Shown here one piece after another: positions 10,538 to 60,895 of a DNA stretch of 63,766 nucleotides. Position numbers and translations under genes: made by a program. The notes under the pieces were generated by a model. That model did not search any database. It was not told the DNA's origin and was given only the letters and a program-made list of their open reading frames with translations. Every line of letters begins with the position of its first letter. Within the stretch, counting starts at the first letter, position 1. The stretch is from an uncultured Syntrophaceae bacterium (GTDB lineage: Bacteria > Desulfobacterota > BSN033 > UBA1163). The DNA lies in assembly GCA_964390545.1 (NCBI GenBank), contig CAYMJV010000005.1, positions 1 to 63,766 on the forward strand. Reading direction: 5' to 3'.

Positions 10538-10586
10538 ACCCCCACCCAAACCCTCCCCCTTGAGGGGGAGGGGTGGGTGGGGGGGA
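10538..10586. repeat. GC-rich REP-like hairpin (CCCTCCCCCT..AGGGGGAGGG family)
   Basis: Palindrome; related copies near 48084-48125 and 59051-59080. Confidence 0.6.
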
Positions 10587-16833: not shown

Positions 16834-16852
16834 CGAGTCCGTAACGAGCTTG

Positions 16853-17032
16853 CAAAATGTCAAATGCCAAAATCCCTGCCTACCGGCAGGCAGGCAAATG
16901 CCCAATGAATGTCAAATTTCAAAATCCAAAGTTTTTCATATTTGAACTTTGGATTTGATTTGAACTCTGATCTTTGACATTTGGCATTTTCAGAAGCAGC
17001 AAATTCGATATTCGAATTTCGTATCTCCAAAT
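16853..17032. repeat. Periodic inverted-repeat element, CAAAT/TTTG type, carrying a 20-nt palindromic insert
   Basis: CAAA-nnn heptamers versus TTTG-nnn heptamers; CCTGCCTACCGGCAGGCAGG inserted at 16875-16894. Confidence 0.85.
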
Positions 17033-17037
17033 CCTGC

Positions 17038-17805
17038 TCATCTCAGATAGATCCTCAGGAAGACGAAGACCGGGACGAGCGTGAGGAGAAGCAGTTCCCC
17101 CCACCCAAATCTTCCGGCGGTCGTTTCAGGCATCGTTCCCTGATAACCTCTGGAAAGCATGGCCAGATAGACCCGTTCCCCGCGGTTAAAACTCCTCAAG
17201 AAGAGCCATCCCACCATGTGACCAATGACCTTCGAGTGCCAGAGCCACTTCCCTCCGAAGCACCTCGAATCCCTTGCCCTTTTCATCCGATGGATTTCAT
17301 CGATGAGAATGAACGAGTAACGGTACATGAAGGAGATAAGAATGGTAAAAATTCTGGGAGTTCTCAGTCTCTCCATTCCCTTGATCAACTGGGGAAAAGA
17401 GGTCGTGGAGGAGAGAAGAATGATGGCAAAGACCCCCAGACAAGACTTGACAACCACATTCCACAGGATCCAAAGGCCGCTCTGAGAGACGGAAAGTCCT
17501 CCAAGGCCCAGATTGTAGCCTCCCCCTAAGGTATCCTTCTTCATAAAAGGAATAGAAAGGCTCACCAGAAAGAGAAAGGGAAGAATGACCACGATCTTCC
17601 TCGCCAAATGGCCCAAAGGAAGCCTTGCAAGGAGGGCGATGCTGATGAGGGCCAGGGTCAGAAGGCCAAAGAGAAGAAAGGAGGAGGGCTGAGAACTGAC
17701 CCCCACTAGAATCAAAGAGAAGAAGACAATGATCTTTGCTCTGGCGTCCAAGTGGTGGATTGGACTTTCGACACCGCTGTGATGATCTAAAAAGGCATGC
17801 CTCAT
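17038..17805 (-). CDS. cbiQ: ECF transporter transmembrane T component CbiQ
   Basis: IHHLDARAKI, FMYRYSFILIDE, RARDSR and AMLSRGY motifs. Confidence 0.9.
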   Translation of the reverse strand: MRHAFLDHHSGVESPIHHLDARAKIIVFFSLILVGVSSQPSSFLLFGLLTLALISIALLARLPLGHLARKIVVILPFLFLVSLSIPFMKKDTLGGGYNLGLGGLSVSQSGLWILWNVVVKSCLGVFAIILLSSTTSFPQLIKGMERLRTPRIFTILISFMYRYSFILIDEIHRMKRARDSRCFGGKWLWHSKVIGHMVGWLFLRSFNRGERVYLAMLSRGYQGTMPETTAGRFGWGELLLLTLVPVFVFLRIYLR

Positions 17806-18659: not shown

Positions 18660-18693
18660 GAGTTACCTTTTATCCCGCCCACTCGATGAAAGA

Positions 18694-18840
18694 AATGGAA
18701 TATTGGAAAAATGGAATGATGTAGAAGTAAGAGGTTAAGGTTAAGGCTAAGGGTTAGGTTAATTTTCAGAATTTCTCAACCTCAACCTAAGCCTCAACCT
18801 CCCGGTTTTCCAGTTTTCCATTACTCCATGATTCCCATGG
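18694..18840. repeat. Nested periodic inverted repeat: outer GGAAT/ATTCC arms enclosing inner AGGTT/AACCT arms
   Basis: Outer arms about 18694-18720 and 18806-18840; inner arms about 18731-18759 and 18777-18803. Confidence 0.8.
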
Positions 18841-20202: not shown

Positions 20203-20365
20203 AGAATGCCCCACCGTGCCTGTCCCGTCCTAACGGGATGGGCGGGCATGGATGAATGTGGCGATTTCAAAAAACCGATAGGCCGGACATTCTTGTCCGG
20301 CCACCGCATTTTCGCCGAGACTGGAAAGTCTCGGCTATCCGTGAAGTCCCCCCTGCGTGCAGGGA
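20203..20365. repeat. Composite multi-hairpin repeat; inverted paralog at 45398-45545
   Basis: GATAGGCCGGACATTCTTGTCCGGC..GCATTTTCGCCGAGACTGGAAAGTCTCGGCTATC recurs as the reverse complement at 45451-45545. Confidence 0.85.
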
Positions 20366-21286: not shown

Positions 21287-21316
21287 TCCCTTTCAGCCCC
21301 GGCTTTGCCGGAGAAA

Positions 21317-21460
21317 TTTCGAAATCCGAATATCGAAATCCGAAACAATTTCAAAATTCGAATGACCAAATTTTCAAACCTATTATTTTTTTCGTTTGAA
21401 ACATTTTGATTTTGAACATTCGGATTTGTTTCGAGTTTCGAGTTTCGTGCTTCGAATTTA
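21317..21460. repeat. Periodic inverted-repeat element, CGAAA/TTTCG type
   Basis: CGAAATC CGAATAT CGAAATC... versus ...TTCGAGT TTCGAGT TTCGTGC TTCGAAT; between sigma and anti-sigma genes. Confidence 0.85.
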
Positions 21461-21520
21461 TGATCTGCGCCACGAGAGATTACCGACGTTCTTAGCAATA
21501 TTCAACTGCAAAAGAATAAT

Positions 21521-22880: not shown

Positions 22881-23212
22881 ATTTTTTCAGAGATGGCTGT
22901 CTCGGCATAGGTCAACCAGTTGATCTCCAAAAATCTCCACTGTTCCACGGAAGGACCTTAACGTCTATTTTCCCCTTTTTTTATACCATCAGACTTTTTT
23001 ATTCAATCTTTTTATTGAAAGAAAACCATGCGATACCTCGACGGCGCCAAACCCCGACTTCCGACCGCCATAGGCGAAGGGATGAACTGGTTCAGATACA
23101 TATGAGACAGAAGTGAGTTAAGGTAGAAGGGGAGATTGAGTACAAAGGGTTGATTTTTTTAACAAAGATGTCTATAATTATTTTATATTGTTTATAAGGA
23201 GGTAAACCTGAG

Positions 23213-23521: not shown

Positions 23522-23563
23522 CAAAAAAGGGAGGACCCGATCACGGGGGGTTTTCCCTTTTTT
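23522..23563 (+). terminator. Rho-independent terminator
   Basis: AAAAAAGGGAGGACCC...GGGGGGTTTTCCCTTTTTT stem-loop with T tract after the lipoprotein stop. Confidence 0.7.
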
Positions 23564-23567
23564 GATG

Positions 23568-23674
23568 CTTCGACGGCACCAAACCCCGATTTTTAAGTCG
23601 GGGTAAGAAGCGCCGCTCAGTATCAACCCTGAGCATACCTCGGGTTTTAGACCGGGGAGTCGAATGGGTTGATT
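23568..23674. repeat. About 107-bp multi-hairpin repeat, uninterrupted form
   Basis: Reverse complement aligns end to end with 43125-43328 once three inserts are removed; partial copy begins near 23037. Confidence 0.85.
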
Positions 23675-23693
23675 CCTCCCCCATTTCAATCCC

Positions 23694-26174: not shown

Positions 26175-26579
26175 ATGAAAGACGAAGAGATAAAAAATAC
26201 ACTTCGAACATGCAAGACCGTCGCCGTGGTGGGCATTTCGCCCAAAGAGGATCGGCCCAGTTATGGGGTTGCATCCTATCTGAAATCGAAAGGCTATCGC
26301 ATCATTCCTGTCCGGCCGGAGGGGGACGAGATCTTAGGCGAGAAGGTTTATCATAGCCTCACGGAAATTCCCAGAGGAATTGAAATCGATGTGGTCGACA
26401 TCTTCAGAAAATCAGAGGACGTCCCTCCCGTGGTGGAGGAGGCCATCCGTCGGGGAGCGAAGGTCGTTTGGATGCAGGAAGGGATTATCAACCAGGAAGC
26501 CTGTGCAAAGGCTAAAAAGGCCGGCTTAAAGGTGGTCATGGACCTCTGCATGAAGAAAGAACATCAAAGGCTTCTTTAA
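26175..26579 (+). CDS. CoA-binding domain protein (YccU-like)
   Basis: VAVVGIS..DRPS, IDVVDIFR, VWMQEG motifs. Confidence 0.9.
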   Translation: MKDEEIKNTLRTCKTVAVVGISPKEDRPSYGVASYLKSKGYRIIPVRPEGDEILGEKVYHSLTEIPRGIEIDVVDIFRKSEDVPPVVEEAIRRGAKVVWMQEGIINQEACAKAKKAGLKVVMDLCMKKEHQRLL

Positions 26580-26715
26580 ATCCCAAACCACAAATACCAA
26601 ATTCCAAATAAATTCCAAATGCCAATTTTCAAATGACCAAAACGATTTTGTTTGGAATTTTGAAATTTGAACATTGTAGATTGTTTGTTATTTGGTGCTT
26701 GGAATTTGGTGCTTG
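26578..26715. repeat. Periodic inverted-repeat element, CAAAT/TTTG type
   Basis: CAAACCA CAAATAC CAAATTC CAAATAA... versus ...TTTGGTG CTTGGAA TTTGGTG; between convergent genes. Confidence 0.85.
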
Positions 26716-26719
26716 CATT

Positions 26720-27829: not shown

Positions 27830-28054
27830 TCTCTCCTCCCTATCTTCAAGGCAATCAACTATCGCCGACTCATCACCCCTGCCTACCGCACGTAGGCGCA
27901 AACAATGCAAATTTCTAATCCCCCCTTTAGCAAAGGGAGGTTGAGGGGATTTGAAAACTATTTTCTCAAACTGAATCCTCCCTCGCCTTGAAGGCGAGGG
28001 GTTCGAAAAACATGTCGACTTCAAGTCGACTTCGGTCCTAATTCCCTCTTCGTC

Positions 28055-28132
28055 GTCATTCCTGCGAAGGCAGGAATCCAGAAGAGAATCTGGAAGAAGA
28101 ACCCACTGGATACCCGCTTTCGCGGGTATGAC
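28055..28132. repeat. REP doublet, GTCATTCCYGCG..GCRGGAATCCAG family (copy 1)
   Basis: Two inverted units around a spacer; same layout at 30094-30162 and 46556-46624. Confidence 0.85.
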
Positions 28133-29900: not shown

Positions 29901-29969
29901 AAAACCTTTCTCCTCCTGTTAAAAGAATATCATACAAAATCTTCAAATTTTCCAGGTGAGGAGACTTTT
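29901..29969. repeat. Direct repeat copy 1 of a promoter-like segment (copy 2 at 32381-32451)
   Basis: AAAAGAATATCATACAAAATCTTCAAA..TGAGGAGACTTT is shared; homology resumes at about 30213-30250 versus 32450-32487. Confidence 0.85.
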
Positions 29970-30093
29970 TTATTAAAAGCGCACCTGAAAACCCCGTTCT
30001 GTGCCTATCTGCCTTTAGGCAGGGACGGGGGTGAAAGATGTGTCCGCCGAAAGCGAAATGGTTTAGCGAGTTGCTGAGAAACCCTAAATCACT

Positions 30094-30162
30094 GTCACTC
30101 CCGAGAAAGCGGGAGTCCAGATAAGCTTGTAAGGACTGGATTCCTGCTTCCGCAGGAATGAC
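30094..30162. repeat. REP doublet, GTCATTCC family (copy 2)
   Basis: GTCACTCCCGAGAAAGCGGGAGTCCAG ... CTGGATTCCTGCTTCCGCAGGAATGAC. Confidence 0.8.
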
Positions 30163-30341
30163 AACATGGAAATAGGTTTTGAATTTTAAAGCCCTGCCCT
30201 GTGGGCGGAGTTCTTTACTTTTAATGTCTGAGAGGACTGAACTCTGTAATTGACACGTTTCACTCAAAGATGTAGATTTCAATTGGTAGTAGAGAGGCTC
30301 CGAATCTTGTTAGGTGAGGTTCAATATTTAAATCTTGTGAA

Positions 30342-31765: not shown

Positions 31766-32298
31766 AAACGGTCAGCTTGATTTCGCAGCTCATCATTCCG
31801 CTCTTCATCCTGTTTGCGATTCTTTATGGGTGGGCCAAGAAGGTTAGGGTTTACGATTGTTTCGTCTCTGGCGCAAAAGGCGGGGTGGGCGTCGTGGTCA
31901 GGGTTTTCCCGTACCTCCTGGCGATCTTCGTGGCGGTCAAAGGTTTTCAAGCCTCCGGGGCCTTTGAATTTGCCCAGGAGCTGCTACGGGGGCCCCTGGG
32001 GGTCTTCCATGTTCCCATCGACGTGGTATCGATTGCCCTCATCAAACCCTTGTCCGGAAGTGCTTCGCTAGGCGTGTTCACAAATATCGTCAGAACCAAT
32101 GGTCCGGATTCCCTGGCCAGCCTGATTTCTGCGGTCATCATGGGGAGCGCGGAAACGACCTTTTACGTACTGGCAGTTTACCTGGGTGCGGTGGGGATTA
32201 AGAGGACAAGATATCTGGTTCCGGTCTGCGTTCTCGCCGACCTCGTCGGGATCATCATCGCAATCAGCATCGTGAAATTCTTTTTTCATTTGGGCTGA
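31762..32298 (+). CDS. spmB: SpmB-like membrane protein
   Basis: VYDCFVSGAKGG, KPLSGSAS, MGSAETTFYVLAVY motifs. Confidence 0.9.
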   Translation: MKTVSLISQLIIPLFILFAILYGWAKKVRVYDCFVSGAKGGVGVVVRVFPYLLAIFVAVKGFQASGAFEFAQELLRGPLGVFHVPIDVVSIALIKPLSGSASLGVFTNIVRTNGPDSLASLISAVIMGSAETTFYVLAVYLGAVGIKRTRYLVPVCVLADLVGIIIAISIVKFFFHLG

Positions 32299-32380
32299 TG
32301 GACTCAAGATGTGGAGGATGCCTGGTTTGAAGAACTTCGTTTTTCGAAGACACAGGGAGATCCTGGAAAATTTCTTCCTG

Positions 32381-32487
32381 AAAACCTCTCCCCGCCCCTT
32401 TTAAAAGAATATCATACAAAATCTTCAAACTTACAAGTTGAGGAGACTTTCTTATTTTTGATGTCTGAGAGGGCTCGCTGAGTAATG
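32381..32487. repeat. Direct repeat copy 2 (uninterrupted)
   Basis: See 29901-29969. Confidence 0.8.
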
Positions 32488-32536
32488 GTAGGTTTAATCC
32501 TTTTCCCTTTTAAATAGGACCCTAAAGCCTCATCAA

Positions 32537-33043
32537 TTACTTCCGTTTCGGCAGATAAACAGAAGGCACAGTTCCGGCCCATATCCAAAGAAGGCCATAT
32601 TCCTTCGATGGGCTTCCTGTTAGTGTAAAGGTTTTTCCATCTATTTCTGAATCTATGCCTGTCAGTGTTGCTATGATTACTACTTCCTCAGGCCCCAGAG
32701 TAACAACGGTTATTGAACTGATCTTGTTAGTAGACATGCTTGCACCCAAGCTGGTTTTGATGTCCTCCATGGTATGAAGAGAAGGGAGGAATGAGTTTGC
32801 TTCTTGATGATATGCTGCTATCTCAGCAGCGACGTTGCTCATATAATTGGTTATCTCCGTCAATTTCTCAATCCTAGTATTCTCACTTCTCTTAAACTGT
32901 CGAAGTATATCATCAAAACCTTTATAAGCCTCATTTTCCGTTTGTTTGATGATAGTCAATCCAAAAAACAATCCAGCAGTCAAACAAATCACCACAACTA
33001 AGAAAATCAATACATTTCTTACCTTGATAAACTTCTTATCCAT
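32537..33043 (-). CDS. Hypothetical membrane-anchored protein
   Basis: One N-terminal TM helix; GGAG RBS; no recognised family. Confidence 0.6.
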   Translation of the reverse strand: MDKKFIKVRNVLIFLVVVICLTAGLFFGLTIIKQTENEAYKGFDDILRQFKRSENTRIEKLTEITNYMSNVAAEIAAYHQEANSFLPSLHTMEDIKTSLGASMSTNKISSITVVTLGPEEVVIIATLTGIDSEIDGKTFTLTGSPSKEYGLLWIWAGTVPSVYLPKRK

Positions 33044-33566
33044 CTCCTTGGGAAAATAGTGGGAAGCATGGGGGGCTTTGGGGGGTACCGGCTGGTTGAT
33101 TCAGATTATATGTGAAATAGAAACTCTCCCCCCCCCAAAAAAATTTGGTGGTTATATAAAGGCAGGGAATAGGTAAGGATGAAACCAAGCAAATCTTTTG
33201 TTGAGACGCATCCTGGCGATTAACAAAGTCAAAAATAAATCTTAGAGAGCAGCTAAGGGGGGAGGGGTCGATAAGGCTTCTCCCCTTCTTGTTTTCTTCC
33301 TGAAACTATCTGTTCCCTAATTTTAGCCAAAAGTGTATATTACAACTGCAAATGAACAACGCGGATGTGTCTCGATCCCTTTGAATAATTCATTCTGAAA
33401 TTAACTCGTTTCTATATAATATTGTGTAAAACCATCTTTTCTGGAAAAATAGTATGATATTCAAGCCTTTTGAATAAAAGAGAGCCTTTAATGGTTTAAG
33501 ATTTAATAAAAACATAGAAGCAGCTTAATAAATAAGTTAGGCGGTCAGTAAGGAAGGAATTCAATT

Positions 33567-34313
33567 ATGAATGATTTAGAAAAATACTTCATAGAAAATA
33601 CAGGAAGACTGATTGAGAAATGGAAACACTATTTTGAAATTTATGATCGACACTTTTCGCGTTATAGGGGTACTGATGTTCACATTATTGAATTCGGTGT
33701 ATATCAAGGCGGTTCTTTGCAGATGTGGAAACAATATTTTGGGCCTAATTCCAAAATATTTGGGATAGACATCAATCCACATTGCAAGAAGCTAGAAGAG
33801 GAACAGATTGAAATATTCATAGGTGATCAGGAAGATAGAAGATTCCTGAAAGCGCTAGCAGAAAAGATTCCAAGAATAGATATCTTGATTGATGATGGCG
33901 GTCATACAATGAAGCAGCAAATAAACACCTTTGAGGAGCTTTTCTCTTACATTGATGAGAATGGTGTGTATCTATGCGAAGACATACATACCTCTTATTG
34001 GCTGAGGTGGGGCGGAGGCTATAAGAAACGCGGCACGTTTATAGAGTACAGTAAAAACTTTATCGACTATATAAATGCTTGGCATTCTACCCGAACAAGC
34101 AGGTTAAGCGTCACAGAATTCACTAGATCGGTTCACTCATTGCATTATTACGATAGTGTTCTTGTGATTGAGAAGCGACCAATTGAAAAGCCATTGCACC
34201 TGGAAACTGGAACACCAGAAATTCCAAATTTTGATCCGCCAAAGAGCTTATTGAAACGCCTCAATGGACAGTTGAAACGAGAAATAGACCACCTAACAAG
34301 GCGCTCCACCTGA
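33567..34313 (+). CDS. Class I SAM-dependent methyltransferase (cassette gene)
   Basis: IIEFGVYQGGS, FGIDI, DILIDDGGH, YLCED motifs; AT-rich relative to neighbours. Confidence 0.85.
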   Translation: MNDLEKYFIENTGRLIEKWKHYFEIYDRHFSRYRGTDVHIIEFGVYQGGSLQMWKQYFGPNSKIFGIDINPHCKKLEEEQIEIFIGDQEDRRFLKALAEKIPRIDILIDDGGHTMKQQINTFEELFSYIDENGVYLCEDIHTSYWLRWGGGYKKRGTFIEYSKNFIDYINAWHSTRTSRLSVTEFTRSVHSLHYYDSVLVIEKRPIEKPLHLETGTPEIPNFDPPKSLLKRLNGQLKREIDHLTRRST

Positions 34314-34362
34314 CCGCTTTTCCGCTGCGCTTCAAAGCGGCCGGTGAGCTTTATGGTTATAC
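34291..34362 (+). other. attC recombination site (72 bp)
   Basis: R'' ACCTAAC, 5-nt spacer, L'' GCTCCACC pairing with L' GGTGAGC with one extrahelical C, CCGCTTT/AAAGCGG stem, R' GTTATAC. Confidence 0.9.
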
Positions 34363-34640
34363 TCTCTTTCTAAGGGAAATCATCAACCTCTAATGTAGAC
34401 TAATCCTCACTCTTTGTAGGTGCTATACGTAACATATTCTGCTTTTTCTTTTGATATTAGTTAGTTATACACCGTTTCCCAAGAATATTCTCGCTGACTT
34501 CTCCATTCAACCCATATATACTGCCATCAAGATTTAGGCCTTCCGCTCGTTCTTTGAGTCAACTTAACAATACAACCTTTAACCTTTTGGAGTGAACTAT
34601 TGGGGGGATTCCAAAAGGTGCCTAATAAAGACTAAAGATT

Positions 34641-35159
34641 ATGAAACAGATTACCCTGGCGATAATTTTCGTCGTACTTATGTTTGGGATTTCCTTCGCT
34701 TTTGATTGCCCAAAATGCAAGATAGAGATGGTGGAGAAGGATGGCATAGCTACTTGCCCGAAGTGCGGTTTTTCAGCTAAAATTGGCCGGACTAAAATTT
34801 ATAAAGAGCCAACAGTCGAAGAAAAGATGAGAACGATTGAACAAGAAAAGGAGGTGAAACTCAAAAACCTTGACGAGAATCTCATAAGGGACGTCAGCAA
34901 AGTTAAGAAGGATGGGGAATATGACTCAAAGATTGAAAGAATAAATGAGCTTAAAAACAGGATAGAACGGTTAGAGGGAGAATTGAGAATAGTAGAAAAT
35001 GAAATGAAGAAGATCGACTGGGAAAGAAATATGTCGACTGGAAGATTACCATATAATTTGAGCTATAGATATGCTGGACTGAGGGGAGAACAGGAAGCTA
35101 TCAAGGATTGGATTAGAAGGTATGAATTTGAAATTGAAACAATTAAAAGAAGTTTATGA
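34641..35159 (+). CDS. Hypothetical exported protein with two CxxC motifs and a coiled coil
   Basis: Signal peptide ending SFA; CPKC-x12-CPKC; charged helical C-terminus. Confidence 0.65.
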   Translation: MKQITLAIIFVVLMFGISFAFDCPKCKIEMVEKDGIATCPKCGFSAKIGRTKIYKEPTVEEKMRTIEQEKEVKLKNLDENLIRDVSKVKKDGEYDSKIERINELKNRIERLEGELRIVENEMKKIDWERNMSTGRLPYNLSYRYAGLRGEQEAIKDWIRRYEFEIETIKRSL

Positions 35160-35364
35160 ATAGTTACTAAAACGTAACCAACCAACTTCACGGGTTACTT
35201 TCGGCGAAATCCTCAAAAAAAGAAACTCAAGATTAAGTTCTCAAAAAGCAAAGGCAGGGTCAGAGAAATGACCCTGCTCCTCAACCATGGAAGGAGACAA
35301 TGTTGACTCAGCTTCAACCCCATTTCTGAAAAGCGAATGGGGTTTTTTGTTCGGAAGGAGATTT

Positions 35365-35697
35365 GTGAAGAGAGCAATTCTTATTATAATTCCATTTCTA
35401 ATTCTCACCCTCTCTCTTTCTGTTTCGCATGCCCAAACTTACAAAGTGAAGCGGGTCATTGACGGCGACGCCCTCCTCCTTACCAACGGTGAATATGTCC
35501 GCTTGATCGGTGTTGATACTCCCGAAACAAAGCATCCACAAAAGCCTGTTGAGTATTTTGGAAAGGAAGCCTGTCAATTCACCAAGCGAATGGTAGAAGG
35601 AAAGGAAGTCAGGCTTGAATATGACCAGACCAGGTCCATATCTAAGTATCCCCCTGACACAAAGGTCATACATTACCCCCAATGCCCCATTGCTTGA
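35365..35697 (+). pseudogene. Truncated thermonuclease (SNase-like)
   Basis: VKRVIDGD..VRLIGVDTPE motifs present; similarity breaks after RLEYDQT and the C-terminal half is absent. Confidence 0.7.
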
Positions 35698-35766
35698 TTT
35701 TCGAGGTGGAGGCGTTATAATACCCAGGGCGTTTCAAATATCTTCAGCTTCCAGAGGAGGTGTGTT

Positions 35767-36504
35767 ATGAAGACATTGTTATTGTTAAGCAATCTGCTCC
35801 CCGTGATCATTGCAGTTTCTTCCTTCGCCCAGGAGAAATTCGAGACAGATATCATCAAGACATCGGCGGGTGACCTGAAGATCACCTTCATCGGCCACGG
35901 CACGTTGATGTTCAATTTTGGGGGAAAGGTGACCCATGTGGATCCCTACAGCAATTTGGCCGATTATAACACCCTCCCCAAGGCCGACCTGATCCTCTTG
36001 ACCCATGACCACCCGGACCACCTCGATCTGAAGGCCTTGAATGTAGTACGAACAGGCAAGACGATCGTGGTGTTGACCGAGGCCTGTGGAAAACAGGTGC
36101 AGGGAGGCATTGTGATGATGAACGGCGATGTGAACACATTGGAAGGGTTAAAGATCGAGGCTGTGCCCGCCTACAATATTGTCCAAAAACGGGACACCGG
36201 TCAGCCTTTTCACCCGAAGGGAGTTGGCAACGGCTACATCATCACCTTCGGTGACAAGCGGGTCTATGTGGCTGGCGATACTGAGAACATCCCAGAGATG
36301 AAACGCCTGAAGAACATTGACATTGCATTCCTGTCCATGAATCTCCCCTACACAATGACACCCGAGATGGTGGCTGATGGGGCAAAGGTCTTCAAACCTA
36401 AGATCCTCTATCCCTATCACTTTGGTGAAACGGATACGTCGAAGGTGGTGAGCTTGCTTAAGGAAACTCCGGAGATTGAGGTCCGCATCCGAAAAATGAA
36501 ATAG
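35767..36504 (+). CDS. MBL-fold metallo-hydrolase, exported
   Basis: THDHPDHLD, YVAGDT, PYHFG motifs; signal peptide. Confidence 0.88.
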   Translation: MKTLLLLSNLLPVIIAVSSFAQEKFETDIIKTSAGDLKITFIGHGTLMFNFGGKVTHVDPYSNLADYNTLPKADLILLTHDHPDHLDLKALNVVRTGKTIVVLTEACGKQVQGGIVMMNGDVNTLEGLKIEAVPAYNIVQKRDTGQPFHPKGVGNGYIITFGDKRVYVAGDTENIPEMKRLKNIDIAFLSMNLPYTMTPEMVADGAKVFKPKILYPYHFGETDTSKVVSLLKETPEIEVRIRKMK

Positions 36505-36552
36505 AGGGATTTTTGTGTAGGGTCATAATGAAATGGAAGGAGGAAAAAGATA

Positions 36553-36699
36553 ATGTGCTTCGCTGGACAGAAAAGCGGATGTCAGTTCCCTGATCAGTTA
36601 AAGGGGAAACCTAAAGACTGCACTCCCAAACAGATTAAGGAGTGCCATGGGTCTATAAAAAGGCACCCTTGCCTTCCTAAAAGGAATAAAAAGAAATAG
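36553..36699 (+). CDS. Small Cys-rich protein (48 aa), below the ORF-track cutoff
   Basis: MCFAGQKSGCQFPDQLKGKPKDCTPKQIKECHGSIKRHPCLPKRNKKK; GGAGG RBS upstream. Confidence 0.6.
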   Translation: MCFAGQKSGCQFPDQLKGKPKDCTPKQIKECHGSIKRHPCLPKRNKKK

Positions 36700-37051
36700 T
36701 TATGAATCAGAGGGAAAGAAAACGGTAGTCAAATCCCCTTTCGTTCCTTTAAACAATCAACCTTAGGGGTAGACATGGATAAGCATTGCATTAAACCCCA
36801 TTTCTGAAAACGGAATGAGGTTTTGTTTTCCTAACCTTTAGGGATACAAGAGTTAAGAAATTCCAAAGTGGGTGGATGATATGAGAAAGATGATGACAAG
36901 ACTACGGTTGGCTTCTGTGTCGGATCAGACCTTGATTTGTCCCAAGCCGGACTTGATCGAAAAATTGATCCTCAATAGTGGGAAAAGATGAGATTTCAAA
37001 ACCTACCCAATTACCTACCGTTTAAAACCTCCAGAGTTTTCAAGAAGTTTC

Positions 37052-37126
<75 letters not shown>

Positions 37127-37195
37127 CTTTTTAGACATTGTTTCTTTTTTTACCATGTTTTAGAATAGTCGTCAATCAAGAACGGGGGCATTCGT

Positions 37196-38173
37196 TTGAA
37201 AAGATTCCTCATCTCCTTACTTGTTACCTGCATCATCCTTTTCATCCTATTTACCCAGATCTCCCTGAAAGGTCTCTTTACCCTTTTAATACAGATCGAT
37301 CCTTTTTGGGCGACGTTGGGATCCGCAGGTTACTTCCTGGCCACTCTCTTTCGTGCCCTTCGATTTCGATGGCTGATCCATTCGAAGGACATTTCAATCG
37401 ATGAACTCTTTCGAATCTCTGTATTCTATCATTTATCCCTCATGGTCCTTCCTTCCAAACTCGGAGAACTCTCTTATCCCTATCTCCTAAATAGAATCGG
37501 TGGGATCAGCATGACCGAAGGGCTGGCTTCCCTGATTGCTTCGAGGGTCTATGATTTTTTCATCATCCTGGTGATCTTTCTGTTCTCCTCTCTCGCATTT
37601 CAGAACCTTTTCAAGGTCAACCTTCTCTTTGTCCTTCTCCTTACCCTTCTCTTGATCCTTCTGATTCTCGCCGCCTTCTTCTATATGAATCGTCTCTTGA
37701 TCTTGATCTCTAATGTCTGCGGATGCATATTCAAGATTCTCCGAAAAGAAGAGAGCAAAACGGCCCTATGGGTCCAAAAAACAATTCATGAAATGTCAGA
37801 AGACTTCTATGCCATTCGAGCTAAAAAGACCTACCTCGCCGTTACTCTGACCAGCATCCTTTCCTGGTTTATGATTTTCTTAACGTTTGAAGCTTTTCTC
37901 TTGGGATTCGGGGTCGAAATCTCTTTCCTTAAAGTGCTCTTTGGTTCAACCGTTGCTGTTATTGCAAACGCCTTACCCATTGGGGGCATTGGCAACTGGG
38001 GAACACTTGAGGTGGGATGGGCTGCTGGGTTTCTGATGACCGGACTTCCCAAAGAGCAGGCGATTGCCACAGGATTCGGCGTTCACATCCTGATATTTAT
38101 CACCTGTGCTCTACTTGGACTGCTCAGTTGGGTGACTTTGAAAAAGAAAAAAGCCCCTCTCCGAACCTCTTGA
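37196..38173 (+). CDS. Lysylphosphatidylglycerol-synthase TM domain (flippase-like, UPF0104) protein
   Basis: Multi-TM; RALRFRWLI, PSKLGEL, LPIGGIGNWGTLE motifs. Confidence 0.8.
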   Translation: MKRFLISLLVTCIILFILFTQISLKGLFTLLIQIDPFWATLGSAGYFLATLFRALRFRWLIHSKDISIDELFRISVFYHLSLMVLPSKLGELSYPYLLNRIGGISMTEGLASLIASRVYDFFIILVIFLFSSLAFQNLFKVNLLFVLLLTLLLILLILAAFFYMNRLLILISNVCGCIFKILRKEESKTALWVQKTIHEMSEDFYAIRAKKTYLAVTLTSILSWFMIFLTFEAFLLGFGVEISFLKVLFGSTVAVIANALPIGGIGNWGTLEVGWAAGFLMTGLPKEQAIATGFGVHILIFITCALLGLLSWVTLKKKKAPLRTS

Positions 38174-42222: not shown

Positions 42223-43089
42223 TTAGTACTCGTCACCTTTTTTGGGGTTCCACCCTCTGTACAGTTGAGGCGCGATGATCAATGACGCGATGGCAAACGC
42301 AACACCGGCAAAAAGATCAATGACATAGTGGTACCTCAGATAGACCGTCGAGAGGATCAACCCACAGATGATCGGAAAGAAAAGACAAGAAAGCAATTTT
42401 TCGTAGCGGTAGGCCAGATAAAGGACCATGAGCACAATCTGAGTATGGCCACTGGGCATGCAATCGCGTTTGTTATGTTCCAGGGCATTCAAAGTATTTC
42501 TCACAAAATCGGTAATCCATGTTCCCTCCAGGGGCACAGAGTGAAATGAGGTTAATGTAAATCGGGGTCCAATCGCTGGAAAGAGAATGTACCCGATAAA
42601 GGAGGCATAGTATCCAAAGGTTAATACAAAGATCGATTCATTGAATTCCAGCTTTCGGTTTTTTATGTAAAGGACAACCACGAGGGTGAGGGGAAGGAAA
42701 TAGTAACTCAAATAGGCCAAGGACATGACATCCGTAAACCAGGGAACAACCCACCTCTCCATCCAAACCGTAGGATGCACGCCAAACAGGAAGAGGTCGA
42801 TTTGTATTAGCCAGGAGTCGATATCCCGTCGGAGATACTGAATCAGATCACCGAGCGACTCGTAAATAAGGATGATGAATATCAGCGGTGAGAAATCGTT
42901 GAAGAAGGCCCCTCCTTTCCCCTTGCGATCAGAGGATATTTTCATCACAAAGAGAAGGGCCATCAACATCAGGTAGCGGAGGAGGAGGGAGTGCCAGAGC
43001 GGAATGTGCCCTTTAAAGATGAGTGTGAGGAGAATCAATCCAATCAAAAAGAAAAAGGTCAGTCCGTGAACGGGAGTAATTTTTCTCAT
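42223..43089 (-). CDS. PAP2 superfamily membrane protein, Aur1/IPC-synthase-like
   Basis: PAIGPR, MPSGH and LRYHYVIDL motifs; N-terminal IDxxLFG..P segment. Confidence 0.75.
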   Translation of the reverse strand: MRKITPVHGLTFFFLIGLILLTLIFKGHIPLWHSLLLRYLMLMALLFVMKISSDRKGKGGAFFNDFSPLIFIILIYESLGDLIQYLRRDIDSWLIQIDLFLFGVHPTVWMERWVVPWFTDVMSLAYLSYYFLPLTLVVVLYIKNRKLEFNESIFVLTFGYYASFIGYILFPAIGPRFTLTSFHSVPLEGTWITDFVRNTLNALEHNKRDCMPSGHTQIVLMVLYLAYRYEKLLSCLFFPIICGLILSTVYLRYHYVIDLFAGVAFAIASLIIAPQLYRGWNPKKGDEY

Positions 43090-43124: not shown

Positions 43125-43328
43125 AATCAACCCTTCGACTATCCCTGGTCTAATCCTTCGACCCCGCTCAGGACGAGCACCCGGGGTTTGCCGCTCGTCC
43201 AGAGACTTCGGCGTGAGCTCAGTCGAACGCTCCGGCCGAAGGCTCAGCCTGCCTGCCGGTAGGCAGGGGTTGATACTGAGCGGCGTTTTTAGCTCCATCC
43301 TAAAAAGCGAGGGTTGTCGCCGTCGAAG
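43125..43328. repeat. Expanded copy of the 23568-23674 repeat with three nested inserts
   Basis: Shared ends AATCAACCC..TTCGACT and GGTTGATACTGAGCGGCG..CCGTCGAAG. Confidence 0.85.
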
Positions 43329-43380
43329 TATCAAGTAGTCAAAAAAGATCGATGATTCAAACCGTTCTGGAGGAGTGAGC

Positions 43381-45123
43381 ATGCGGTATTCGCAATATTT
43401 TCTTCCTACCTTGAAAGAAGTCCCTTCTGAAGCAGAGGTTCCCAGTCATCAATTGATGTTCCGGGCAGGGATGATTCGGAAACTGGCGTCGGGGATCTAC
43501 TCCTATCTTCCCTTTGGACTCCGGGCTATTCAAAAGGTGGAGTCTATCGTCCGGGAAGAGATGAACCGGGCGGGTGCCATTGAAGTCTTGCTCCCCTTTG
43601 TCCAACCAGCTGAGATTTGGCAGGAAAGCCATCGGTGGGAGGAATATGGAAAAGAACTCTTAAGGTTGAAAGATCGCCACAATCGGGACTGCTGTCTAGG
43701 ACCTACCCATGAGGAAGTGATGGCGGATATTGCTCGGAAGGAAATCCGATCGTATCGTCAGATGCCTCTCAATCTTTACCAGATCCAGACCAAATTTAGG
43801 GATGAGATCCGACCCCGCTTCGGGGTGATGAGAGCGCGAGAATTTATCATGAAGGATGCTTATACCTTTGATATTGATGAAAAGGGACTGGATGAAAGTT
43901 ATCGAAAGATGGTCGATGCCTACACACGCATCTTCAAACGCTGTGGTTTAAAATTCAAAATGGTCGAAGCCGAATCGGGCGTGATCGGAGGATCCTATTC
44001 TCATGAATTCATGGTCCTGGCCGAAACAGGAGAGGAAACGATTGTCAGTTGCACCCTTTGCTCCTATGCGGCGAATATCGAAAAGGCAGGATTCAAAAGG
44101 GTCGAGCCAAAAGGCCTCCTCCGTGACGCAGGACAGCTGAAGCCCGTTCAAAAAGTTCTCACACCGGATCAGCGGACCGTCGAAGAAGTCACCCAATTTC
44201 TCCATGTCTCTCCGCAGGATTTGGTCAAAACCCTTATCTTTGAAACCGATAAGGGGTGTATGGCTGCGCTGGTCCGGGGAGATCATGAGATCAATGAAAA
44301 AAAGTTAAAAGTGGCTTCAGGAACGGAGAACCTCCAGCTCGCGGGAGAAAGGACTGTTGAAGAGATCACCCATGCTCCAAAAGGATTTGCTGGCCCGATA
44401 GGGCTTTCTATCCCCATGATCGCTGACCTGGACCTTCAGAATATGGTCAACTTCGTCGCCGGCGCCAATGAAAAGGACGCCCACCTGATCAACGTCAATA
44501 TTGGACGAGACTTTCAAGTGAGTCAATTCGCCGATCTTCGGAGATTCGTTCCGGGAGATCGTTGCCCTCTTTGTGAAGGAGAGACAAGACTCGATAAGGG
44601 AATCGAGGTTGGTCATACTTTTAAACTCGGAACCAAATATAGTCAACCCATGGGCGCCACCTATCTCGATGACCAGGGGAAGGAAAAGGAAATTGTCATG
44701 GGGTCTTATGGAATCGGTGTCGGAAGGACCGTGGCTGCAGCAATTGAACAGTATTTCGACGACAATGGGATCGTCTTTCCTGTCCCGATTGCTCCTTTCC
44801 ACGTACTCATCCTCCCCGTCAATATTAATATCGATCTTCTCAGGGAGACGGCAGAACAACTCTACCAAAGTTTATTGAAAGAACGGATAGAAGTCCTGTA
44901 TGACGACCGGGAAGAAACTCCAGGAGTCAAATTCAAGGATGCCGATCTCATCGGGATTCCCTTGAGGGTGACTTTAGGTGAGAAGAATTTGAAGAAAGGT
45001 TTGGTGGAGATCAAGAAAAGGAGAACGGGAGAGACCTCTCTAGTGAAGAAGGAGGAGGCAATATCGGAGATCAAAAAATTGATCGATCAAGAGCTGAAGG
45101 CTGTCGTTCCAAATCTTTCTTGA
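43381..45123 (+). CDS. proS: Proline--tRNA ligase (with INS editing domain)
   Basis: LGPTHEE, QIQTKFRDEIRPRFG, GIEVGHTFKLG, GSYGIGVGR motifs. Confidence 0.97.
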   Translation: MRYSQYFLPTLKEVPSEAEVPSHQLMFRAGMIRKLASGIYSYLPFGLRAIQKVESIVREEMNRAGAIEVLLPFVQPAEIWQESHRWEEYGKELLRLKDRHNRDCCLGPTHEEVMADIARKEIRSYRQMPLNLYQIQTKFRDEIRPRFGVMRAREFIMKDAYTFDIDEKGLDESYRKMVDAYTRIFKRCGLKFKMVEAESGVIGGSYSHEFMVLAETGEETIVSCTLCSYAANIEKAGFKRVEPKGLLRDAGQLKPVQKVLTPDQRTVEEVTQFLHVSPQDLVKTLIFETDKGCMAALVRGDHEINEKKLKVASGTENLQLAGERTVEEITHAPKGFAGPIGLSIPMIADLDLQNMVNFVAGANEKDAHLINVNIGRDFQVSQFADLRRFVPGDRCPLCEGETRLDKGIEVGHTFKLGTKYSQPMGATYLDDQGKEKEIVMGSYGIGVGRTVAAAIEQYFDDNGIVFPVPIAPFHVLILPVNINIDLLRETAEQLYQSLLKERIEVLYDDREETPGVKFKDADLIGIPLRVTLGEKNLKKGLVEIKKRRTGETSLVKKEEAISEIKKLIDQELKAVVPNLS

Positions 45124-45397: not shown

Positions 45398-45545
45398 TAA
45401 AGAGGGAAGCTCATCGCGCATCCCGTTGGGACGGGACAAACACCGTGGGGTTTCACCGATAGCCGAGACTTTCGTTCGACTGAGCTCACGACGAAGTCCA
45501 GTCTCGGCGAAAATGCGCTCGCCGGACAAGAATGTCCGGCCTATC
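45398..45545. repeat. Inverted paralog of the 20203-20365 repeat with hairpin inserts
   Basis: Insert of about 25 nt at 45473-45497 inside the CCGAGACT/AGTCTCGG loop. Confidence 0.85.
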
Positions 45546-46471: not shown

Positions 46472-46555
46472 AATAAAATTCTTAATCCCAAACATCAATA
46501 ACCAAACAGATTTTACGTGAGGGATTCGTCACCGGCGAATCATGAAAATAAAGGT

Positions 46556-46624
46556 GTCATTCCCGCGCAGGCGGGAATCCAGCATAATATGGAAGAAATG
46601 GATTTCTGCTTTCGCAGGAATGAC
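46556..46624. repeat. REP doublet, GTCATTCC family (copy 3)
   Basis: GTCATTCCCGCGCAGGCGGGAATCCAG ... GGATTTCTGCTTTCGCAGGAATGAC. Confidence 0.85.
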
Positions 46625-46674
46625 AAAAAAGGCACTTTTTATTTTCTACGTAATTGCTTATTGTAGCTTCTAAT

Positions 46675-47927: not shown

Positions 47928-48131
47928 AAATGCAGTTCGGAGTGATTTGTTCGGAGTTCGGAGCAAATAATCACGAAAATAATCGCAAGAAAATCGGAAT
48001 AGGGTTGACCGGTTTGAGGCTGCCATTTAATGGGTGCGGTCACCCTCTCTCCGTCCCCTTATCTCCCCATCTCAAAACCATTGCTCCCCCACCCGCACCC
48101 TCCCCCATCAAGGGGGAGGGGAGCGGAAGGG

Positions 48132-49328: not shown

Positions 49329-49400
49329 ATCATAGCCTCGCCTCTAATCCTTTTATCAACTGCAATATGAACTTGGAGAAATATTGAATGGTGGCTTGAC

Positions 49401-49535
49401 CTAATGCCAAATGCCAAAGTTCAAATGTCAAATGAATGCCAAAATGATTCAATGTCAAAAGTCTTCTTGTCAAATTTTGTCATTTGAGCTTTGGATTTGA
49501 TTTGAACTTTGAGCTTTGACATTTGGAATTTCTAA
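49401..49535. repeat. Periodic inverted-repeat element, CAAAT/TTTG type
   Basis: CAAATGC CAAAGTT CAAATGT CAAATGAA... versus TTTGAGC TTTGGAT TTGA TTTGAAC TTTGAGC TTTGACA. Confidence 0.85.
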
Positions 49536-55013: not shown

Positions 55014-55026
55014 GGATTAATTAAGC

Positions 55027-55231
55027 TCCAATAACCAAATTCCAATAGCCAAATAATCACCAATGACCAAATAACCAATAGCCAACCGATTATCTGTGAT
55101 TTACAAAACGAGTTTGATTATTGGCCATTGAAATTTTGGTTATTGTTTGATTATTGCCTGCCCCGCACCGCTCTGGTGCGGGGGTGCTTGCCCTGCACCA
55201 TGTTAGGTGCAGGGCTTGGAATTTGGTTATT
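55027..55231. repeat. Periodic inverted-repeat element, CCAAT/ATTGG type, with two GC-rich hairpin inserts in the right arm
   Basis: Inserts GCCCCGCACCGCTCTGGTGCGGGG and GCCCTGCACCATGTTAGGTGCAGGGC interrupt the TTGG heptamer array. Confidence 0.8.
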
Positions 55232-55240
55232 GCCATATCC

Positions 55241-56513: not shown

Positions 56514-57986
56514 TCATTGCCCATTGGTCGTTTGAGGGGGGTTGGGAGGATGAGTACCAGACCATCGGAGATGAAAGGGCAGGTAGAAAATCCTGAGATC
56601 AAAAGACTCCCCATCCCTCCGATACAAAAACAGCCCTTTCAGAAGAGAGACGCTCTTCACTCCATTCCATTTTTTAACACCGATCAGGTGAGCGACCTCC
56701 CAGTAGTCCAATCCCTCTTTCTCCATCTTTATGTACAATCCCCAAAGGAGATTGGTGGAAATCCCTTTCGGAGGATCCTTCTCCCAGCGGTAGATTCGAA
56801 ACAGGGGAAAAAAATTCCTTTCAAGCCCTTCTTCCTTAAATGGGAAAAGATAGAAGACGTTGAGGATCTCGTGACCCCCTTCTTCCCTTTCATAATCATA
56901 GATGGGCCAGATTCGAATGGATTCCCCTTTCTCTCTTCCCTGAGGACCCTCGCCCGTTCGTATGCGGCTGAATAAGATGCGATAGGTCGTCTCATGGAAA
57001 TCTGTCAGCCAGTCCTCCTCATATTGATAGAAGGGATAGAGGATGAAGACCCTCTTCGACTCTCCCTCTCTCACCTTATAACCATAAAAAAGGAAGAATC
57101 TCTTCCCGTAGAGGTTTTCCCCTTTGAAGGTCCGAAAAAGAGGCCAGGGCAGATCCCACTGTTCGAAACCTGTGCGCTCCTCTTTGGCATGGGAGAAGAG
57201 TGGCCACAGAATGGTCTTGCTGTAGAAATATTTGGATTCCTTTGAAATATAAAAGGGAAAAACCATCCATTCATCCGTCGGATCATCTGTATCCAATCCT
57301 TTTGTCTTTTTCACGAAGATGGGCCACAAAAGAAAGGCTTGCGTTGAAACCCCAACCTCCTCCTTTCTCCCGTAGATGGGCCAGATTCGGTACCCTTTCT
57401 TCTTCTCGCCGCTCGTGGAGGAGACAAAGGGCCAAAGGAAGTTTTGGGTACGAACGCCTTCTGAGAGCGAATCCGAATAGAGGGGCCAGAGATAAAAATG
57501 GATTTCATCCTTACCATATCGTTTCAGAAGTGTACCGAAAAGGGGGAAGAGACCGAAATAATCTTCTCTCTCTTCCGTCTCTCCAATAAAGAAAGGGAAG
57601 AATTGAAAATCCCATTTCTCCTTTCCATCGAACGTCTGATCCCTGTAGGAAGAAAGCGGGAAGAGGTATCCCTTTTCATCATCGCCCTTGATTTGATATT
57701 TTCCGAATGGATAAAGAAACTCTAATCTCTTCAGACCCTCGTCTTCATCCCTCGTCCAGTAAAAAAAGGGACGAAACCCCCACCCCCTTCGACCCGATTC
57801 CTTTTTCAAGTGGAAGAGAGGACCTAATCCCTCGGCCTCACTTATTCCTTCCACCGGGTCAGACGTATAATGGAAAAAGGGCCAGAAATTGATCGTGACC
57901 GGTCTCTCGCCTGCTAGGGAAGGAAAAGGGATGACGGAAAGAAAGAGGATTACCGTCAACAAGAAAAATTGCTTTCGGATTATCAT
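56514..57986 (-). CDS. Exported protein with about 19 aromatic-Pro-aromatic repeats (for example LWPLY, FFPFF)
   Basis: Signal peptide ending SLA; repeats spaced roughly 15-20 aa apart; directly downstream of mlaD. Confidence 0.8.
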   Translation of the reverse strand: MIIRKQFFLLTVILFLSVIPFPSLAGERPVTINFWPFFHYTSDPVEGISEAEGLGPLFHLKKESGRRGWGFRPFFYWTRDEDEGLKRLEFLYPFGKYQIKGDDEKGYLFPLSSYRDQTFDGKEKWDFQFFPFFIGETEEREDYFGLFPLFGTLLKRYGKDEIHFYLWPLYSDSLSEGVRTQNFLWPFVSSTSGEKKKGYRIWPIYGRKEEVGVSTQAFLLWPIFVKKTKGLDTDDPTDEWMVFPFYISKESKYFYSKTILWPLFSHAKEERTGFEQWDLPWPLFRTFKGENLYGKRFFLFYGYKVREGESKRVFILYPFYQYEEDWLTDFHETTYRILFSRIRTGEGPQGREKGESIRIWPIYDYEREEGGHEILNVFYLFPFKEEGLERNFFPLFRIYRWEKDPPKGISTNLLWGLYIKMEKEGLDYWEVAHLIGVKKWNGVKSVSLLKGLFLYRRDGESFDLRIFYLPFHLRWSGTHPPNPPQTTNGQ

Positions 57987-59033: not shown

Positions 59034-59169
59034 CTTTATCCCCTCCTTATTCCCCTCACCCCATCCCTCTCCTCTGAGAAGGCTGTGTCATAATAGAAAA
59101 CACGAAACTTCTCATTCGACAGCCTCCAAGATGCCCAGGGGACAGGCAGGCGGCTGAGGGGAATTCAAC

Positions 59170-60769: not shown

Positions 60770-60895
60770 AAATGCAATGTCAAAGTCCAAAATCAAAATT
60801 CCAAATGAATGTCAAATATCAAAAATTTTCCAAATGATTTGAAATTTAAACATTTGGATTTCATTTGAACTTTGAACTTTGTCATTTGAAATTTA
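60770..60895. repeat. Periodic inverted-repeat element, CAAAT/TTTG type
   Basis: Same arm layout as 16853, 26578 and 49401; between alr and mlaE. Confidence 0.85.

Follow-up and report, generated by a model that had tools for sequence, protein, structure and literature searches.

Nested modules of 20-39 nt in an intergenic repeat of an uncultured Syntrophaceae bacterium probably rank with the smallest mobile DNA elements described so far

Introduction

The locus described here raises the question of what has made one copy of an intergenic repeat nearly twice as long as another copy on the same contig, and whether the additional DNA is mobile. The window, i.e., the whole stretch of DNA that was analysed, comprises 63,766 nucleotides of contig CAYMJV010000005.1 (assembly GCA_964390545.1) from an uncultured Syntrophaceae bacterium, and contains at 43125-43328 an element of ~204 nt. 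An initial annotation had read this element as an expanded copy of the repeat at 23568-23674 carrying three inserts, one of them nested, and had proposed that the inserts belong to a system of mobile hairpins that enter structured repeats through an HUH/Y1-type enzyme acting on single-stranded DNA (ssDNA). The best explanation of the results is that the ~204-nt element is a non-autonomous repeat of ~110 nt, repeatedly colonised by far smaller non-autonomous mobile modules. Taken as a whole, with the colonised repeat, the nested mobile modules and the proposed mechanism together, this explanation is given a probability of about one in two.

Results

A gap-tolerant affine global alignment paired positions 43125-43334 (+) over their full length with the reverse complement of 23555-23690 and reproduced the inserts, and the kinship of the two copies was thereby borne out (default MAFFT merged all inserts into one large gap, and the custom affine alignment was used instead). 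Aligned end to end, the long copy of the host repeat occupies 43127..43334 (+) and the short, "empty" copy of ~110 nt occupies 23562..23673 (-); a repeat-family search and nhmmer added a third copy at 23032..23086 (-), which is internally deleted and keeps both termini. The true limits of the host element lie slightly outside 43125-43328, from the TCAA at 43127-43130 to the TCAA at 43331-43334, with the layout TCAA-CCCTTCGACT ... CGTCGAAGT-ATCAA, and TCAA bounded the repeat on both sides in nine copies from several genomes. The common core reads (A)TCAA-CCC(A)TTCGACT..CCCyGGTCTAA[1]ACCCGrGGT[2].. in its left part and GCTCAG[3]GGTTGATACTGAGCGGCG..hairpin..GCCGTCGAAGyATCAA in its right part, where [1], [2] and [3] mark the extra blocks of the long copy. 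The long copy is intergenic, between a PAP2-family gene on the left (42223-43089, -) and proS on the right (43375-45123, +), as is the short copy, which is flanked by an open reading frame (ORF) of 96 amino acids and a PBP1-type gene; the repeat was found in both orientations relative to adjoining genes. The entire 216-nt element was missing in a ~92%-identical relative from a wetland metagenome, where 43113 is joined to 43330, and the host repeat is therefore itself an insertion. Its termini are inverted (CCCTTCGAC/GTCGAAGGG) with TCAA on each side, and the empty site of the relative has one ATCAA, which fits a target duplication of 4-5 bp and a fixed target alike.

Comparison of the copies revealed that the long copy consists of the host and four pieces from three families, namely M24, an inverted M24-family module (M24'), M26 in the centre of M24', and M20. 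The nesting seen in the initial annotation was therefore correct, and its count of three inserts was too low. Block [1] is M24, a 25-nt module (TCCTTCGACCCCGCTCAGGACGAGC / TCCTTCGACCCCGCTCAGGACGAG(C)) at 43154..43178 (+), located by alignment and blastn-short, which occupies the loop of the first hairpin of the host (GGTCTAA^ACCCG). It has the form TCC-TTCGACCCCGCTCA-GGA-CGAGC and belongs to a "TTCGAC...GCTCA" family, here called F1, in which a short covarying stem (TCC/GGA, GAC/GTC, CCT/AGG, CAC/GTG, and CATCC/GGATG were seen) surrounds the conserved loop TTCGAYnnnGCTCA, often with a tail after it. Block [2] (43188-43242, ~55 nt) encloses GACTTCGGCGTGAGCTCAGTCGAACG (43204-43229). Once the 25-nt M26 was taken out, the reverse complement of this block, CCTTCGGCCGGAGCTCTGGACGAGCGGC, was identical to M24 at 20 of 24 positions; block [2] is therefore no new kind of module but M24', which carries M26 between a 3' part at 43190..43203 (-) and a 5' part at 43229..43242 (-), both assigned by comparison with M24. 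M24 and M24' make an inverted pair, GGACGAGC...GCTCGTCC.

M26, a 25-nt module (GACTTCGGCGTGAGCTCAGTCGAAC) located by blastn-short, lies at 43204..43228 (+) and is directly followed by the host trinucleotide GCT, and the 26-mer given in the initial annotation, which reaches 43229, is M26 plus one base (G). On the opposite strand it reads GTTCGACT-GAGCTCA-CGNCGAAGTC. The module holds just the left terminus (TTCGACT) and the right terminus (CGNCGAAGT) of the 110-nt host, with 7 nt between them, and therefore looks like a miniature derivative of its host repeat. Block [3] is M20, a perfect 20-nt hairpin (CCTGCCTGCCGGTAGGCAGG) at 43248..43267 (+), delimited by alignment and strain comparison, whose insertion point GCTCAG^GGTTGATA is within the loop of the second hairpin of the host. 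With a stem of 7-8 bp (-7 kcal/mol, z = -2.9), it is the sole stable hairpin among M20, M24, M26, and a 39-nt module (M39) described below. Other copies in the window were located by blastn-short. In agreement with the initial annotation, a second exact copy of M20 was present at 16875..16894 (-), in a palindromic heptamer-repeat element (~16850-16990), which makes two exact copies compared to 0.00 expected in 100 dinucleotide-preserving shuffles. M26 has a second copy at 45474..45498 (-), of the T subtype (GACTTCGTCGTGAGCTCAGTCGAAC) and followed by GAA; the corresponding 26-mer (45473-45498, -) has one mismatch to 43204-43229. In Syntrophaceae metagenome-assembled genomes (MAGs), one host-repeat copy showed the same module layout but with M26 reversed (L031), and another had a different 38-nt two-unit insert elsewhere in the repeat (L089).

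Gain and loss of modules were analysed in strain contigs from other metagenomes (wetland and sediment samples of the Joint Genome Institute, JGI) that were picked by identical matches to three proteins of the window. The comparison covered 17 contigs, 0.5-2.5% diverged, and all insertions and deletions (indels) of at least 6 nt over ~35 kb, and revealed five module-type indels, with exact module boundaries, no target duplication and no scar. M20 at 43246-43265 was present in the window and in L001 and missing in L002-L004, while M20 at 16875-16894 was kept in the window, L262, and L268, with exactly 20 nt gone in L263 and L264. M39 (GCCTTTCGACAGGCTCAAGGCCCTGAGTTCGATCGAGGG) was found after 43216, in the centre of the M26 palindrome TGAGCTCA, in L001 and L004. 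A 24-nt M24-type module, identical to M24 at 21 of 24 positions, was found after 23645 in the short copy of L139-L141, where it uses the same loop position as M24 in the long copy, and another 24-nt F1-like module was inserted after 21324 in four strains. In the five filled/empty strain pairs, and in TTGAT pairs, the junctions were ambiguous by at most 1-2 nt. Heptamer arrays accounted for slippage indels of 7, 14, 65, and 82 nt; the rest comprised one tandem duplication of 15 nt and a few differences of 8-18 nt (around 18669-18839, and one site at 21290) that were left unclassified. Every combination of the 39-nt and 20-nt states, four in all, was seen at the proS locus, and therefore recurrent events or very short recombination tracts were involved. 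The modules are nested, recently mobile nano-elements, and this part of the interpretation is held with high confidence. The target duplication that marks a classical miniature inverted-repeat transposable element (MITE), moved by a DDE transposase, did not accompany the strain indels of the small modules.

The exact 20-mer of M20 occurred in at least 120 stretches of GTDB species genomes, compared to a chance expectation of ~1 copy in 596 Gb on both strands (our own estimate from 4^20). Among the matches listed, its carriers represented more than 10 phyla, with unrelated surrounding sequences. They included Bacteroidota (among them the isolates Olivibacter, Salinimicrobium, Thermobacterium, and Flavobacteriaceae R38) as well as Ignavibacteriota, many Patescibacteria, Omnitrophota, Planctomycetes, Chloroflexota, Nitrospirota, Desulfobacterota-type MAGs, Acidobacteriota, WOR-3, and others. 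A shared k-mer search found no longer conserved context among the M20 loci listed, and M20 is therefore a free-standing 20-mer. Exact M20 was also present in 12 viral contigs. M26 occurred in at least 128 contexts beyond the window in metagenomes, and variants of it were present in plasmids of Planktothrix agardhii, Calothrix PCC 6303, and Picosynechococcus; that of P. agardhii is nested in an F1 loop (CAC-TTCGACAA^GCTCA-GTG). A relaxed scan for M26 in viral contigs gave 5 matches, too few for covariation at further positions. Words from M26 and M20 were 100-200x as deep as those from the unique flanks in wetland metagenomes; RNA runs, which had at most 10% of words in common with proS, and four runs of unstated type with ~25-28%, were not used. 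Most of the sites listed lay outside long ORFs, ~76% in the case of M20 and ~91% in that of M26. The modules thus have fixed ends in unrelated contexts and are present or absent between strains without target duplication, in accordance with the mobility and consistent ends that had been expected of them.

Target rules, which the initial annotation had sought from filled and empty junctions, emerged as a flank preference for M20 and a pairing rule for M26. Among the M20 matches listed, the base at -1 was G or A in 92% and the base at +1 was G or T in 80%, with nothing else in common. Recurrent hosts of the modules were loops of G+C-rich hairpins, heptamer arrays, F1 loops (TTCGACAG^GCTCA), the centre of M26 (with nests up to three to four deep), the loop of M20 itself (at GCCG^GT), and the D-loop region of duplicated tRNA 5' halves. 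The host hairpins were CCTCCCCC-TTGAT-GGGGGAGG, GTCCCCC..GGGGGAC, GTAGGGGCTGAA..TTCAGCCCCTAC, TCCCGCGAAAGCGGGA, and GAGCC..GGCTC, the last resembling repetitive extragenic palindromic (REP) sequences. For the CCTCCCCC hairpin, empty loops (TTGAT) and loops filled by T-subtype M26 (TT[25-mer]GAT) both occur across genomes. A clean stem of at least 5 bp in the junction flanks was present at only ~17% of M26 sites, and therefore the siting in structured repeats is a strong tendency and no rule. The preference proposed at the outset holds to this extent, for hairpin loops, heptamer arrays, and other modules.

At the M26 site of L194, a single right half of the module comes after four left halves (GACTTCGGCATGA) in tandem, an asymmetry that suggests slippage or partial events on nested modules; L208 holds a symmetric nest three deep. 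For M20, an interruption of intact tRNA genes was considered and discarded, given that ARAGORN found none on flanks from which M20 had been deleted; the hosts are duplicated tRNA 5' halves.

The conserved block around the core of M26 reads (A/G)-G-x-C-TTCG-N-CGTGAGCTCAGTCGAAC-G-N'-T, of which G-N'-T is host sequence (GCT of F1 and M26 loops, GTT of host stems, and GAT of TTGAT loops). The variable base N of the module was Watson-Crick complementary to N' of the host in 101 of 119 de-duplicated sites (T/A 43, G/C 50, A/T 7, and C/G 1), whereas permutation gave 46 on average and never more than 62 (chi-square p = 1.6e-30); the sites were sampled by a fixed 22-mer, and N/N' was the only testable position. 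At GCT sites N was G in 50 of 52, and in the nested cases listed the inner M26 at ^GCT was always of the G subtype, even within an outer M26 of the T subtype. Both copies in the window comply, with N = G before GCT (43229) and N = T before GAA (the copy at 45473). This covariation resembles the signature that would be expected of target choice by an internal guide base. IS608 is known to read its cleavage sites through internal guide sequences, to excise precisely, and to accept a reprogrammed target (PMC3201880, PMC5934647, PMC5027513).

Regarding genes next to the modules, an ORF encoding a GIY-YIG protein of 77 amino acids was present beside 7 of the ~120 M20 loci listed, with a median distance of 86 nt between module and ORF; in those 7 loci, M20 lies 27-86 nt upstream of the ORF, in a duplicated tRNA 5' half. 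In L038, L118, L052, L108, L014, and L070 the ORF is located between this half and an intact tRNA gene, an arrangement that looks like a tRNA-targeting GIY-YIG mobile element (for example L118 7105-7480, -; L118 has two such units in tandem). The duplicated half stops in the anticodon loop, and its D-loop region holds M20 or an M20-like hairpin each time. In a Dehalococcoidia MAG (L069 2600-2770) a tRNA-like sequence by a GIY-YIG ORF is broken by several different small hairpins, e.g., CCCGCCTGAGGCGGG and CCCGCCTTTGGAGGG, and therefore other families of hairpin modules exist. Y1_Tnp genes were found 45-140 nt from M20 in 2 of the ~120 loci listed, both in Chitinophagaceae MAGs (L078 and L021).

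Further repeats of the window are related to hosts of the modules. The T-subtype M26 copy sits in the 4-nt TTCC loop of a 9-bp hairpin (GCCGAGACT/AGTCTCGGC) of the repeat at 45447-45545, and repeat alignment identified an uninterrupted copy at 20277..20350 (-), with the hairpin loop intact and no M26. The repeats of this family are ~75-100 nt long, with the hairpins GCCGAGACT/AGTCTCGGC and GGCCGGACA..TGTCCGGCC, and one with M26 was also present in an unrelated metagenome contig (L203 164-250, 85% identity). A repeat search found an unfilled CCTCCCCC-TTGAT-GGGGGAGG hairpin at 48098..48119 (-). Nested G+C hairpins of the form CCCCCACCC..CCCTCCCCC-TTGA(T)-GGGGGAGGG..GGGTGGGGG are located at 10539-10586, 48085-48120, and 59053-59087, all unfilled; in metagenomes this family often hosts M26 and M20. 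Hairpin repeats of the type TGTCATTCC(C/T)GC...GCAGGAATGACA occur at 28048-28081, 30093-30165, and 46555-46631, and carry M20 and M26 in L063, L100, and L172. Palindromic A+T-rich heptamer arrays (AAATNNC...GNNATTT) occur at ~16850-16990, 21316-21490, 26579-26716, 49400-49531, 55024-55233, and 60770-60894; they resemble the STRR repeats of cyanobacteria and host M20 and a 24-nt module. At 16905-17038 the call of an ABC-transporter ORF runs through the heptamer element for 315 amino acids without M20 (L263 and L264) and gives 280 amino acids with M20, and therefore modules alter ORF predictions. In addition, a 60-nt direct repeat (29915-29974 and 32397-32456, 90% identical) encloses ~2.4 kb, and the region 32000-38000, where G+C falls to 0.40-0.45, holds the sole tRNA gene of the window (37055-37126) and may represent an island. 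A database look-up returned no gene on record for 56514-57986.

Discussion

The engine proposed for these modules is single-strand transposition of the HUH/Y1 type with guide-base targeting, which is held at slightly less than even chances. The modules would move as ssDNA in an IS200/IS605-like "peel and paste" manner, catalysed in trans by an HUH/Y1 enzyme (TnpA or RAYT-like). The insertion point of M26 would be picked by base pairing, in such a way that a host G-N'-T comes directly after the module (and A-N-C directly before it when the complementary strand is read), with N' complementary to the variable base of the module's own TTCG-N-CG; the single-strand substrate in this model would be A-N-C + GTTCGACTGAGCTCACG-N'-CGAAGTC + flank. 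F1 and M26 loops contain GCT, and G-subtype M26 would therefore target its own relatives, resulting in the Russian-doll nesting. A wider reading, somewhat more tentative, is that M20, M26, and F1 are pan-bacterial non-autonomous ssDNA transposons of 20-25 nt, the smallest mobile DNA, with guide-paired targets and homing to loops. On that reading the identity of M20 could be due, with similar reserve, to frequent transfer of a dedicated enzyme between phyla or to parasitism of a universal host enzyme; the carriers of M20 include bacteria of the Candidate Phyla Radiation (CPR) with genomes of ~1 Mb and some phage contigs.

Several observations weigh against an HUH/Y1 engine. A tblastn search with a RAYT-like protein found no Y1_Tnp homologue in the 64-kb window, and when ORFs were clustered over 252 module-bearing loci (1.66 Mb), the small GIY-YIG ORF alone was enriched. 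Both M20 copies adjacent to Y1_Tnp genes lie within other REP-like hairpins (GAGCC..GGCTC), which look like the cognate REPs, and M20 there may be a guest and not the cognate site. Insertion of IS200/IS605 elements favours the lagging-strand template, and the modules showed no orientation bias (same:opposite 67:72 for M20 and 68:61 for M26) when compared with the net coding strand, which stands in only weakly for the direction of replication. Folding of M24, M26, and the 39-nt module was no better than that of shuffled sequences, and the proposal that all modules are hairpins had to be given up. The putative guide of M26 is inside the module loop and not 5' of a hairpin foot, exact M20 has a loose flank preference without a fixed target of 4-5 nt, and the modules differ from IS200/IS605 elements in having no two subterminal hairpins of the imperfect kind that TnpA binds and that RAYTs also recognise, in the guide within the loop, and in that no tnpA was found nearby. 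Finally, the M20-empty allele at 43246 differs by one base (CTCTGGG compared to CTCAG|GG), and with M20 tied to this A/T difference, excision and gene conversion from a paralogue are equally likely at that site. The suggestion of an HUH/Y1-type enzyme, as first made, thus has the indirect support of scarless precision, of the covariation in M26, and of the two M20 loci adjacent to Y1_Tnp; no such enzyme was found in the window or consistently adjacent to the modules.

The main rival retains the mobility of the modules and replaces the HUH/Y1 enzyme by another one acting in trans, be it a small GIY-YIG or other nuclease, after whose cut a hairpin oligonucleotide is copied or ligated in during repair, a recombinase of the serine or tyrosine type with a 2-3-nt core, or a ubiquitous housekeeping enzyme. 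The GIY-YIG ORF beside the 7 M20 loci is the sole closely associated gene family, the modules have no subterminal hairpins of the IS200 type and showed no bias relative to the coding strand, and a housekeeping enzyme would account for the identity of M20 across phyla. However, no GIY-YIG homologue was found in the 64-kb window, and the tRNA halves may merely be tolerated structured targets. A short crossover core could explain why G-x at the left end of M26 equals G-N' at the right end in 58% of sites, but this equality fails in 38 sites (GAC...GC), whereas the complementarity of N and N' holds in 85%, and recombinases usually require longer cores. Another engine of this kind is rather unlikely, yet less so than the view that transposition is over and that the modules are relics, which differ between strains through homologous recombination, ectopic gene conversion, or slippage. 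The latter is consistent with a multi-copy host repeat whose filled and empty paralogues exist side by side, with the A/T difference tied to M20 at 43246, with four haplotypes within 30 nt, as short conversion tracts would leave them, and with the evident slippage of heptamer arrays (indels of 14 and 82 nt). It is improbable nevertheless, given that the M20 indel at 16875 is base-exact in a heptamer element without any filled paralogue found elsewhere in the window, and that hundreds of unrelated M20 and M26 contexts require true insertion. Old relics would also be hard to reconcile with an M20 that is identical in different phyla, which speaks for intact masters that are still being copied.

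Two explanations without transposition of modules were weighed as well. If the 110-nt element were a structured non-coding RNA, the inserts would be lineage-specific expansions of its helices, which accords with a fold more stable than that of shuffled sequences in both copies (z = -4.0 in the long one, -2.3 in the short one), with inserts in hairpin loops, and with the covarying F1 stems. This explanation is very improbable and already largely refuted by other results: the host repeat matched no Rfam family at gathering score (the sole match in the window was the tRNA at 37055-37126), it lies in either orientation relative to adjoining genes, a close relative has no such element, and unrelated hosts, among them heptamer arrays, tRNA fragments, and further hairpins, carry the same inserts. 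An artefact of assembly or sequencing, produced by repeats in metagenome graphs, might be suspected from unitigs that end at modules and from the very high module depth; its probability is close to nil, since the same alleles were recovered in independent assemblies from different samples, the modules are present in isolate genomes and finished plasmids, and the junctions are shorter than typical assembly k-mers.

If the modules are what they seem to be, the lower size limit of mobile DNA drops to 20-25 nt, which is shorter than a single hairpin with its guide base. They would also account for a large class of so far unexplained intergenic repeats of high abundance in environmental genomes, repeats at which metagenome assemblies break and from which spurious ORFs arise. 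The covariation of guide and target suggests a mechanism that can be tested with oligonucleotides, and a module whose target could be changed predictably. Polymorphism of presence and absence at ~1% divergence offers fine-scale strain markers, and the conservation of an exact 20-mer across phyla raises the question of the enzyme that recognises it and of its mode of spread.

Among known systems, the closest precedent is that of the cyanobacterial small dispersed repeats (SDRs), of which SDR1-8, with 21-27 nt, were reportedly described by Elhai et al. in 2008 in Genome Res 18:1484 from Nostoc punctiforme and relatives. By that description, they share with the modules a small size (21-27 nt, one base above M20 with its 20 nt), a dispersed and non-coding location, precise insertion, nesting in repeats and heptamer arrays, and variability between relatives. 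A later account mentions an SDR5 module precisely inserted into HIP1 (Elhai, 2015; PMC4390886). M26 variants occur in cyanobacteria themselves, in an F1 loop of P. agardhii and in a Calothrix plasmid. The modules described here differ in that they extend far beyond cyanobacteria, in that one of them is letter-identical across phyla, and in their base-pairing target rule.

REP sequences and REPINs with their RAYT (TnpA-REP) Y1 transposases are, together with IS200/IS605 elements, the closest mechanistic models (PMC3116915, PMC3733652, PMC8266576). They are likewise short extragenic palindromes present in many copies, whose mobilisation in trans is attributed to an HUH/Y1 enzyme working on ssDNA. 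REPs are known inside other palindromes (PMC3733652), M20 has a GTAG motif, and M24 with M24' forms an inverted doublet. Unlike in REPs, GTAG in M20 spans the loop and the 3' stem (CCG-GTAG-GCAGG) and is no unpaired foot tag (the criterion of PMC3733652). Neither GTAG nor CGTC tags were found in the M24 and M26 sequences, which are no palindromes, and M20 is mostly a singleton and no doublet. M20 is identical across phyla, whereas REP families are specific to a species or genus.

ISDra2, a member of the IS200/IS605 family of insertion sequences (IS), has the target TTGAT, which the TCAA/TTGA(T) flanks of the host repeat resemble. IS608, ISDra2 and their miniatures also share with the modules the lack of target duplication and precise movement, and their short target, paired with a guide inside the element, has a counterpart in the covariation of M26 (PMC3201880, PMC3597680, PMC5934647, PMC5027513). 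The modules have 20-25 nt, compared to ~700-2000 nt for these IS and >100 nt for known miniatures, and M20, with no paired subterminal hairpins, is one hairpin from end to end. BIME, BOX, ERIC, and STRR repeats are modular intergenic repeats made of shorter units, and heptamer arrays act as hosts here; BIME, BOX, and ERIC are combinations of adjacent units and not precise nested insertions with presence and absence at the strain level. The module strings were not found in the literature searched. As far as checked, new features are the cross-phylum range and letter-perfect conservation of M20, the live polymorphism in natural populations, the apparent origin of M26 from the termini of its host, and the guide-like covariation.

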